Assembly: GCA_042576705.1 (NCBI GenBank)
Contig: JBHPEY010000003.1
Coordinates: 3,438-67,437 of the forward strand
Reading direction: 5' to 3'
Length of the DNA stretch: 64,000 bases
DNA from: Nanobdellota archaeon
Lineage (GTDB): Archaea > Nanobdellota > Nanobdellia > Woesearchaeales > UBA11576
In this document: piece by piece, positions 22,765 through 24,340 of the stretch
How the letters are laid out: each line of letters opens with the position of its first letter
Position numbering within the stretch: the stretch's first letter is position 1
Position numbers and translations under genes: made by a program
Notes under the pieces: model-generated
Databases searched by the model: none
What the model was told of the DNA's origin: nothing
Seen by the model: only the letters and a program-made list of their open reading frames with translations

Positions 22765-24340
22765 GGAGGTGATCCAGCCGCAGGTTCCCCTACGGCTACC
22801 TTGTGACGACTTAACCCTTCTCACTGAGCTTAGATTCGACATGATCAAGAAACCAAGCCTCATCTAAACCCTGCTCGAGTGGTTTGACGGGCGGTGTGTG
22901 CAAGGAGCAGGGACGTATTCACCGGGTTCTGATAAAACCCGATTACTAGGGATTCCATCGTCATGAGGGTGGGTTACAACCCTCAATCTGGACTTGGATA
23001 AGGTTTGGAGGTTTAACTTCTCCTTTCGGAGTCGTATCCCATTGTCCTTACCATTGTTGCGCGCGTGTAGCCCAGAAGATTCGGGGCATACAGACCTACC
23101 GTAGCCTGCACCTTCCTCCTCGTTTCCAAGGCAGTCCCCACAATGTGCTCAGTCATACTAAAGTACCCGTTAGCAATTGTAGACGCAGGTCTCGCTCGTT
23201 ACCAGGCTTAGCTGGACACCTCACGGCACGAGCTGACGGCGGCCATGCACCACCTCTCGGCTCCTCAAGTAAAACCTTTAATCTGACTTTCATAGTGCCG
23301 TCGCTTCTGGTGAGATTCTCTGAGTGGAGTTAAATTAAACCGCACGCCGCACCCCTTGTAGTGCTCCCCCGCCAATTCCTTTAAGTTTCAGCCTTGCAAC
23401 CGTACTTCCCAGGCGGCGAGCTTATCGCCTTCGCTTCGATACTGCGCAATCTCGAAGATTGCGCAACACCTAGCTCGCAGCGTTTACAGCTAGGACTACT
23501 CGGGTAATTAGCCTTGAATTTTCATATTAGGTCACTATGAGCAGTTGTACAGTAATGTGTTAACACGAACGTACACTTGCTTGTGTGTTGTAGCTGTGTA
23601 GAAAATCCAAAGTATCTAATCCGGTTCGCTCCCCTAGCTTTCGTCCCTCACAGTCGGATCCGTTCTGGTCAGATGCCTTCGCCATAGGTGGTCCTCCATG
23701 GATTATAGCATTTTACCGCTCCCCATGGAATACCTCTGACTCCTCCCGGTCCCAAGTCTTGCAGTGTCTCTTGCACGCTGTCATGTTAAGCACGACAATT
23801 TCACATGAGATTTACGAGACCTGCTACGGACGCTTTAGGCCCAATAATAACGATTGCCACTTGTGGCGCAGGTGTTACCGCGGCGGCTGGCACCTGTCTT
23901 ACCCACCACTTATTCGCCAAGATTTTTACTCTTAACAAAAGCCCAGCATAGCTGAGCACTCAGGGTTCCCCTATCACACTTTCGTGCATTGTAGAGGTTC
24001 CGCGCCTGCTGCACCCCGTAGGGCTAGGGACGGTATCTCAGTTCCCTTCTCGGGGCTCCCTCTTTCAAGGCCCCTACAGATCGTAGGCTTGGTGGGCCGT
24101 TACCCCACCAACAACCTAATCTGCCGCTGACTCATCCTTAGGCGTTGCCTTTAGAAGACATTTCCTTCCAGAACTGGTCTTCTATCCGGTCTTAGCCCCA
24201 GTTTCCCGGGGTTATCCCAGACCTAAGGGCAGATTATCAACGTGTTACTGAGCATTTCGCCGGTGATCCGAAGATCCCCTTGACTTGCATGGCTTAGTCG
24301 AACCCTGATAGCAGCAATCTCCTGCAGGATCAACAGGAAT
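22765..24340 (-). rRNA. rrs: 16S rRNA carrying an approximately 107-nt insertion
   Basis: The 3' end is the reverse complement of ggaggtgatccagccgcaggttcccctacggctaccttg. The 5' end reads ATTCCTGTTGATCCTGCAGG. 515F, 785, 907 and 1390 region signatures are present. Confidence 0.9.
23505..23611 (-). other. insertion / putative intron within the 16S 790-loop (between GGATTAGATAC and CCCGAGTAGTCC)
   Basis: The canonical GGATTAGATACCCGGGTAGTCC is interrupted by 107 nt. The rest of the 16S is collinear and about 1,472 nt. Confidence 0.55.

Follow-up and report, generated by a model that had tools for sequence, protein, structure and literature searches.

What are 108 extra nucleotides doing in the "790 loop" of an archaeal 16S ribosomal RNA (rRNA) gene, and what would become of them in the mature ribosome? 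The question is raised by a 64,000-nucleotide (nt) stretch of contig JBHPEY010000003.1 from a Nanobdellota archaeon (assembly GCA_042576705.1, positions 3,438 to 67,437; hereafter, the window), whose 16S gene is interrupted in the hairpin loop of helix 24 (h24). Sequence analysis indicates that the insert is very probably an archaeal bulge-helix-bulge (BHB) intron, spliced by the endonuclease EndA, in the 16S gene of a Woesearchaeota-like archaeon of the DPANN group. The organism was placed by 16S similarity, the gene being 91% identical to that of a Woesearchaeota metagenome-assembled genome (MAG) and 95.6% identical to record OBAT01025517. Archaeal genes in the window include eIF-6, Kae1, LonB, PAC2, and FtsY.

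The insert and its junctions

The gene and the insert are located as follows.

22764 to 24340, minus strand: archaeal 16S (small subunit, SSU) rRNA gene (Rfam RF01959, 1426 bits, full model 1-1478)
23506 to 23613, minus strand: putative BHB intron, 108 nt, in the hairpin loop of h24, flanked by U793 and A794 in E. coli numbering (boundaries from cmscan and the BHB rule)

The gene measures 1577 nt with the insert and 1469 nt without it (1577-108), compared to 1478 nt for the model; an earlier note on this DNA had put the gene without its insert at about 1,472 nt, slightly more than this mature length. In the cmscan local alignment, 109 nt stand in place of 1 consensus nucleotide, between GGAUUAGAUA and CCGAGUAG. 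The earlier note had described a 107-nt insertion in the 790 loop of an otherwise collinear gene. The alignment to the SSU model bears out the site, and the full-length match, which revealed no second large insertion from one end of the 16S gene to the other, bears out the collinearity; the length required correction, since the net insert is 108 nt. The covariance-model alignment had been suggested as a way of refuting an intron, and it left the proposal standing, as the extra nucleotides fall in the conserved loop of h24 and not in a variable region.

The ends of the insert are ambiguous by alignment, because the trinucleotide UAC is repeated at both of them (GA[UAC]UUUGG ... AAU[UAC]CCGAG), which gives four equivalent boundary placements. 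Among these, the BHB rule picks 23506 to 23613. Deletion of 23505-23611, the 107-nt interval first proposed, leaves GGAUUAGAUACCCC, with four C's where the consensus has three. The insert is poorer in GC (36%) than the mature rRNA (53%) and the window as a whole (48%).

When folded together with its flanks, as the earlier note had recommended, the insert forms a 3-4-3 BHB at its junctions: each strand has one 3-nt bulge, and 4 base pairs (bp) lie between them. The elements of the motif, all on the minus strand, are listed here with E. coli numbering for the exons.

23613 to 23615: 5′ bulge, A792-U793 plus A (intron nt 1), from the BHB scan; predicted cut after U793 (23614)
23616 to 23619: central 4-bp helix, exon strand UUAG (788-791); 100% paired in 92 distinct sequences
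23508 to 23511: central helix, intron strand CUAA (intron nt 103-106); pairs with exon UUAG
23505 to 23507: 3′ bulge, U-U plus A794; predicted cut after intron nt 108 (23506)
23601 to 23612: distal helix h′, 5′ strand CUUUGGAUUUUC (intron nt 2-13); 12 contiguous pairs
23512 to 23523: distal helix h′, 3′ strand GAAAAUUCAAGG (intron nt 91-102); 12 contiguous pairs
23621 to 23623: exon helix h, 5′ strand C784 G785 G786; native terminal stem of h24
23501 to 23503: exon helix h, 3′ strand C796 C797 G798; pairs with 23621-23623

In each bulge, archaeal EndA cleaves 3′ of the second nucleotide. Cuts placed by this rule join the exons as GGAUUAGAU followed by ACCCGAG, which is the exact consensus loop, in the window and at 90 other loci. 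The alignment and the cut rule are independent, and their agreement on the consensus loop is therefore meaningful. As a cross-check, the rule also yields a perfect tRNA-Ala from the same operon (see below). In composition-matched shuffled inserts, a BHB with an h′ helix of at least 3 bp arose at the right junction in 312 of 200,000 cases (0.16%), and one with an h′ helix of at least 6 bp in 9 of 200,000 (0.0045%); the h′ helix of the actual insert has 12 bp.

The proposed pathway begins with a precursor in which intron nt 2-13 would pair with nt 91-102 and the CUAA segment with exon UUAG (788-791), while the native h24 stem (784-786/796-798) would close the exon side. EndA would cut after U793 and after intron nt 108, and an RtcB-type ligase would join the exons, restoring the universal GGAUUAGAUACCC loop. 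The 108-nt intron would be released, probably as a circle, whose junction would read ...GGCUAAUU-ACUUUGG....

Other classes of intron were considered. No open reading frame (ORF) lies within the insert; three frames of at most 41 amino acids (aa) overlap its ends, running into the exons. No group I intron match was obtained at the gathering threshold in the window, nor at E ≤ 0.01 in 23380-23760. A group I intron was ruled out by the lack of an Rfam match and by the 108-nt length (the class begins at about 200 nt), and a LAGLIDADG homing-endonuclease intron by the lack of an ORF within the insert, as well as by the 793/794 site, which is outside the 13 catalogued loci (see below). The suggestion in the earlier note of an ORF-less mini-intron with a BHB motif is thus backed, at the level of sequence, by the BHB, by covariation, and by the absence of an ORF.

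Occurrence and covariation among relatives

A scan of GTDB, with one genome per species, was performed for GGATTAGATA and CCNNGTAGTCC separated by 71-131 nt, a pattern to which inserts of other lengths are invisible. It returned 115 loci, comprising 93 archaeal 16S genes and 20 + 2 bacterial loci. Twenty of the latter were dismissed as chance matches without a 16S context, and two (L026 and L062) as bacterial assembly artefacts with N's or duplicated ends. The archaeal loci bear mostly the names Woesearchaeota, Nanoarchaeota, or Nanoarchaeia, and several belong to Aenigmatarchaeota and Micrarchaeota, with shorter introns; some of the names are evidently wrong. The insertion site is common to all 93 of these independent assemblies, including two single-cell genomes (L045 and L056). 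The pattern left the intron CUAA and the h′ helix unconstrained, and with the window counted, 91 of the 94 loci carry a 3-4-3 motif that is oriented alike and whose cuts regenerate the loop; the remaining three have a single h′ mismatch each.

Covariation was counted in an ungapped alignment of the motif cores of 92 distinct sequences. Pairing is complete (100%) in the central and exon helices, in the latter with compensatory changes among CG, GC, and UA types. In the CUAA column, C, U, and A are invariant at three positions, and the fourth is A in 90 sequences and G in 2, which keeps a U-G pair. The first four pairs of h′ are formed in 100, 100, 97, and 96% of the sequences, with 4-6 pair types each. 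Overall, 83% of the cells are paired, compared to 67.5% after shuffling, and the covariation score is 0.428, compared to 0.148 for shuffled alignments (none of 500 reached the observed value) and 0.06-0.22 for slid registers.

The same survey bears on whether the insert is an accident of assembly or a random insertion into a pseudogenised rRNA gene. Some related metagenome-assembled 16S genes are clearly mosaic (L043, L112, and L113), and the window holds a single rRNA operon, with no intact second copy for comparison, both of which could speak for a chimera or a dead gene. Against this, the rest of the 16S gene fits its model from end to end (1426 bits), the order of 16S, tRNA-Ala, and 23S is normal, and a random insertion yields a BHB in 0.16% or less of shuffles. 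Because the same site, with the same motif, is occupied in 93 other independent assemblies, single-cell genomes among them, the insert is not a chance or assembly artefact, as judged from these comparisons; an artefact or dead gene is highly improbable.

Among the mosaic genes, the 5′ halves of L112 and L113 share about 75% identity, compared to 92-100% for their introns and 3′ halves, and L043 resembles L112 in its 5′ half and L113 in its intron. These mosaics are probably chimeric co-assemblies, with rRNA recombination as a possible alternative. An initial impression, from these and other loci, that the intron is better conserved than the exons was dropped, as the identity profiles reveal mosaic, probably chimeric 16S assemblies. 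In the Aenigmatarchaeota locus L099 (approximately 240001-248000 of JACPJW010000001.1), the sequence directly upstream of GGATTAGATA, GTCGAGTTCATTCG, is not 16S-like, hinting at another insertion, located a few bases 5′ of the 793 intron.

The closest intron-bearing genome is a Woesearchaeota MAG (L004), with exons 91.4% identical to those of the window. Its intron is also 108 nt long and is 58% identical to the window intron, a value that shuffled sequences reach as well (57±3%). The interior of the window intron thus appears to drift, because its identity to that of L004 is at the shuffle level while the exons are at 91%. A scan of metagenomes for an intron-less allele with the clade's exon signature identified at least 120 records. 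A 34-kb DNA contig lacking the insert (L141) is 97.6% identical over 900 nt to an insert-bearing locus (L079), L130, also insert-free, is 98.1% identical to the insert-bearing L071, and the best relative of the window among the matches listed (L231, 95.6%) has no insert. By these comparisons the insert is optional, because relatives as close as 95-98% lack it.

These patterns can be set against the reading in which the 108 nt survive processing and form an additional helix on the 790 loop of mature 16S rRNA. The insert folds into a long hairpin, its inner hairpin and motifs are conserved in many relatives (see below), which could hint at a structural role, and unusual extensions are generally known from the rRNAs of DPANN and Asgard archaea. 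An unspliced 108-nt hairpin in the h24 loop should, however, be incompatible with function. The loop is an invariant P-site contact (PMC9014874), not the tip of a variable helix; the BHB is precise and covarying, and its cuts restore the loop. Retention is further opposed by the three intron-less relatives just described, by an interior whose identity to its nearest intron-bearing counterpart is random, and by the low GC content. A retained expansion segment is accordingly regarded as very unlikely.

The rRNA operon and the fate of the exons

The intron interpretation draws on the rest of the operon, whose features are given below.

22503 to 22646, minus strand: tRNA-Ala(UGC) in the 16S-23S spacer, with two non-canonical BHB introns (in-silico splicing and ARAGORN)
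22589 to 22625, minus strand: tRNA-Ala D-loop intron, 37 nt (BHB, resolved by hand)
22517 to 22549, minus strand: tRNA-Ala T-loop intron at 59/60, 33 nt (BHB, resolved by hand)
19296 to 22228, minus strand: 23S rRNA gene, without large insertions (Rfam RF02540, 2627 bits, 2933 nt compared to 2987 nt for the model)

As encoded, the tRNA-Ala was detected by neither ARAGORN nor Rfam; removal of both introns in silico produced a perfect 74-nt tRNA-Ala. The BHB of each intron comprises the two 3-nt bulges and a central helix of 4 bp; one irregularity beside a bulge in each explains why the strict BHB scanner missed both. Position 59/60 is a recurrent site of non-canonical introns in DPANN tRNAs. 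In 31 of the 39 relatives whose spacers contain a sequence resembling the 5′ end of tRNA-Ala (loci L004-L107), ARAGORN finds no tRNA, and one to three insertions can be seen in the D-loop, the anticodon loop, and the T-loop; the D-loop intron sequence of the window recurs in L034 and L045. Because the spacer tRNA-Ala needs two non-canonical BHB introns to be removed, the organism must, to judge from its gene sequence, have a broad-specificity EndA. EndAs of DPANN archaea that carry an L3 loop are associated with disrupted tRNA genes (PMC5829648).

Many of the intron-less 16S records are about 1430 nt long and come from OBEP01, which consists of the full-length SSU sequences that Karst et al. 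obtained from rRNA (PMC12203549). The OBAT01 records look like those of OBEP01 and may come from the same study. The insert is missing from the RNA-derived OBEP01 records, of which the closest among the matches listed is 98.1% identical to an intron-bearing gene. These records prove nothing on splicing, because none is at least 99% identical to such a gene and because intron-less DNA alleles exist.

This lack of an RNA-derived SSU record at 99% identity or more to an intron-bearing gene, among the matches listed, is one of several points that weigh against a spliced BHB intron. A strict 3-4-3 hBHBh′ motif has two 3-nt bulges on opposite strands, a 4-bp helix between them, and flanking helices (PMC3239211); here, the exon-side helix has 3 bp only, with A787 facing C795 unpaired, and the 3′ "bulge" is strictly a 1x4 asymmetric loop, a slightly relaxed form of the motif. 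In addition, the minimum free energy (MFE) fold of the window sequence favors a central helix extended to 5 bp by an A787-U pair; cuts placed by the rule would then mis-splice by a single base. The 181-nt region folds no better than shuffles (z = -1.16); the intron alone has a z of -2.76. EndA and RtcB were not among the approximately 40 ORFs scanned, a result that 64 kb is too small to make informative. The 5-bp central helix was itself dropped as a functional register, both for this mis-splicing and in view of the relatives, in which any of the four nucleotides (U, C, G, or A) can open the 3′ bulge, so that the A787-U pair is not conserved.

Cleavage and ligation are separate steps, and one possibility is that the insert is cut out and discarded without re-ligation, which would leave the 16S rRNA to function in two pieces, about 727 and 742 nt long, in the manner of bacterial intervening sequences. 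The cutter could be EndA at the BHB or another RNase acting on the long helix. Ligation is invisible from the sequence, the native h24 stem would hold the halves together, and fragmented rRNAs are established in other lineages; RNA-derived Woesearchaeal SSUs that cross the junction do exist, and they cannot be assigned to intron-bearing genes and hence provide no exclusion. However, all characterized cleavages of archaeal tRNA and rRNA at BHB motifs are followed by ligation by RtcB (PMC4496867), the break would sit at U793/A794 within the invariant P-site loop, and ligation machinery is needed anyway, since the two tRNA-Ala introns of the same operon must be ligated. Fragmentation is therefore improbable.

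The flanks of both rRNA genes form long helices in quick folds (16 bp for 16S), in which no canonical BHB was obvious in the processing stems of 16S or 23S. A perfect 16-bp inverted repeat, GGAGUGUUUGGCAAAC / GUUUGCCAAACACUCC, flanks the 16S gene (within 24341-24470 and 22650-22763, minus strand) as a typical processing stem. Within the spacer, 22397-22485 (minus strand) contains three hairpins that by eye have similar loops (GCCGACGAAGUCGGC, AAAAUCCCGAUGAAGUCGGGAUUUU, and GGGAAAACGAAGUUUUCCC), and the CGAAG hairpin of the tRNA-Ala D-loop intron resembles them, also by eye.

Several other features of the window were observed.

16445 to 16864, minus strand: 139-aa ORF with a match to PF05635 (E = 3e-11), the family named "23S rRNA-intervening sequence protein"; located 2.4 kb past the 23S gene and outside it
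11315 to 16283 and 17143 to 18090: run of six ORFs (154-377 aa) without a Pfam match, adjoining the rRNA operon
25560 to 26471, plus strand: DprA-like protein, more typical of bacteria than of archaea
36692 to 38638, plus strand: full-length RelA/SpoT-type protein (HD, RelA_SpoT, TGS, and ACT), likewise more typical of bacteria than of archaea
43524 to 48335, plus strand: 1603-aa ORF, the largest in the window

The intron interior, known systems, and significance

The interior of the intron contains a predicted hairpin and segments complementary to both strands of h24 (all on the minus strand).

23546 to 23575: inner hairpin P3, UGUACG ... UGUACA (intron nt 39-68; MFE fold)
23565 to 23570: intron segment GUUCGU (nt 44-49), complementary to exon 778-783
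23624 to 23629: exon target GCGAAC (E. coli 778-783, 5′ strand of h24), complementary to GUUCGU
23551 to 23556: intron segment AUUACU (nt 58-63), tentatively complementary (with one G-U) to exon AGUAGU, 799-804 (23495-23500)

In an alignment of 75 introns, compensatory changes were found at all 6 predicted pairs of the equivalent inner hairpin. Three hexamers are enriched in 64 de-replicated introns: AACUAC (15 compared to 1.4 expected), AGUCUC (12 compared to 0.9), and UUUCUG (14 compared to 1.5). AACUAC and/or AGUCUC occur in approximately 37 of 94 introns, which by eye share a common architecture with the inner hairpin. A covariance model, R1, was built from the interior of the 75 introns at this site, with the window left out. 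It gave no match to the window with default filters; with filters off, its sole match in 10 kb fell exactly at the intron, in the right register, with a weak score of 14.8 bits (E of about 1.1). The homology of the window interior to the R1 introns is thus suggestive.

Across the family, the segment 3′ of the 5′ strand of the inner hairpin complements exon 778-783 (GCRAWM) and tracks the exon variant of its host: GCGAUC is accompanied by GAUCGY, GCAAUC by GAUUGC, GCAAAC and GCGAAC by GUUYGY, and GCAAAA by UUUUGC. Of the 64 introns, 35 contain a segment complementary to the exon of their own host, compared to 14.1±2.9 with permuted labels (maximum of 24 in 2000 permutations) and to 8.7 with exon labels taken from a different class. 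A non-circular test, using columns from a MAFFT alignment blind to the exons, found 204 of 260 cells paired, compared to 182.9±4.2 after permutation (maximum of 197 in 5000), and 30 rows paired at all four positions, compared to 14.6±2.8 (maximum of 25); slid registers gave 74-123 paired cells. Kinship among the sequences is only partly controlled in these permutation statistics. Both A-U and U-A states were seen in both intron subtypes. On the 3′ side, ACUACU-type complementarity to exon 799-804, where AGUAGU is fixed by the search pattern, is weakly enriched (30 compared to 20, with a maximum of 29).

These pairings would cross the helices of the BHB, and would require a pseudoknot or an alternative conformer. 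It is conceivable, though rather doubtful at this stage, that the 793 introns are a structured RNA family, in which the loop of the inner hairpin pairs with both strands of h24 and acts in cis or in trans. In a cis version, the intron could serve as a folding or assembly device of the 30S platform, offering EndA the weak exon helix of 3 bp; alternatively, it might hold the P-site loop inactive until late assembly. In trans, it would act after excision. The window intron would then be a divergent member of the family, with GUUCGU opposite GCGAAC and AUUACU opposite AGUAGU. The conserved interior and the covarying intron-exon complementarity are not yet secure.

A C783·A799 mismatch (window 23624 / 23500), flagged by cmscan at the base of the terminal h24 stem, derives from the Woesearchaeal signature CCCGAG and is found in intron-bearing and intron-less alleles alike; both positions would abut the proposed intron-exon pairings. 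In a 13-member subfamily of introns of about 103 nt, most members have CUGA or a close variant near the 5′ end, and AUGAUGA, AUGAUGG, or AUGAUAA at the 3′ end, resembling the letters of C/D boxes (carried by L001, L017, L043, L046, L057, L072, L079, L096, L110, L112, and L113; L081 and L085 lack both). A C/D-box or kink-turn reading was set aside and is not claimed, as inspection by hand found no canonical kink-turn or guide/D-box geometry; the window intron has neither motif.

The nearest known counterparts are the BHB introns in the 16S genes of Thermoproteales, Desulfurococcales, and Aigarchaeota, catalogued at 13 loci: 374, 548, 722, 781, 803, 901, 908, 919, 978, 1093, 1205, 1213, and 1391 (Jay & Inskeep 2015, PMC4496867). 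The window intron resembles them in occupying a conserved functional site of 16S rRNA, in its BHB at the junction, in its predicted dependence on the endonuclease and RtcB, and in the interruption of primer sites; that catalogue also includes ORF-less classes, namely small hairpin introns and remnants. In contrast, the 793/794 site, at the apex of the h24 loop, is outside the 13 loci, and the host is a mesophile-type, Woesearchaeota-like DPANN archaeon instead of a thermophilic member of the TACK group. At about 105 nt, the size lies between the hairpin introns (<50 nt) and the introns with homing endonuclease genes (>500 nt) of that study. The 793 introns lack a homing endonuclease, and many relatives have the conserved interior hairpin and exon-complementary segments.

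Non-canonical BHB introns of tRNAs in ARMAN/DPANN archaea and Thermoproteales (PMC3239211, PMC5829648) share the motif and the enzyme, and two of them lie in the same operon. The orientation of the 16S motif is tRNA-like, in that the central helix is formed by the 5′ exon and the 3′ end of the intron; unlike those introns, the insert has an rRNA host and is three to eight times the typical length of a tRNA intron. Group I introns of DPANN archaea occur in the same organisms and the same class of host gene (Nawrocki et al. 2018, PMC6125680), mostly at large subunit positions 1923/1931/2593 and SSU position 1498, and BHB introns co-occur with them in DPANN rRNA genes (Figure 1 of that paper). 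They are, however, self-splicing ribozymes of about 250-1100 nt, often with LAGLIDADG, whereas the insert has 108 nt and no Rfam group I match. Bacterial intervening sequences and the 16S insertions of the candidate phyla radiation likewise add sequence to conserved rRNA genes of ultra-small uncultured organisms, sequence that the functional rRNA lacks, and cause primer failure; those are handled by RNase III without ligation or are of the group I/homing-endonuclease type, and, unlike the insert, have no BHB.

The DPANN literature mentions "intron-containing 16S rRNA genes", and pipelines strip insertions of at least 10 bp. A cultured Micrarchaeon has a 522-bp 16S insertion at 1093 (PMC8784108), and the same 2022 paper names archaeal 16S insertions in Crenarchaeota, Aigarchaeota, and Micrarchaeota only. 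In the searchable full-text literature, which leaves subscription-only papers outside its scope, no account was found of 793/794 as the site of a conserved intron, or of a family of 16S introns in Woesearchaeota. The 793/794 site is thus apparently a new one for a known kind of element, and a conserved, ORF-less family of 793 introns that spans Woesearchaeota and has shorter members in Aenigmatarchaeota and Micrarchaeota appears to be undocumented there.

The practical consequences concern detection. The insert splits the sites of the widely used 16S primers 785F, 805R, and 806R (E. coli 785-806), in agreement with the earlier note, which had placed it across the 785F and 806R sites; both are split in the sequence. 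Intron-bearing lineages are therefore out of reach of DNA amplicon surveys that target V4 or V3-V4, and at least 94 species-level DPANN genomes carry a 71-131-nt insert at 793/794. Relatives without the intron do amplify (Woesearchaeales are reported in many 806R studies), so that surveys are biased for the clade rather than blank. The spacer tRNA-Ala, missed by standard tools here and in 31 of 39 relatives, adds to the apparently incomplete tRNA sets of DPANN archaea. For a specialist, the parts that might surprise are solely the conservation of the interior and the intron-exon covariation; if the covarying complementarity is true, BHB introns could play more than a passive part in the maturation of rRNA.

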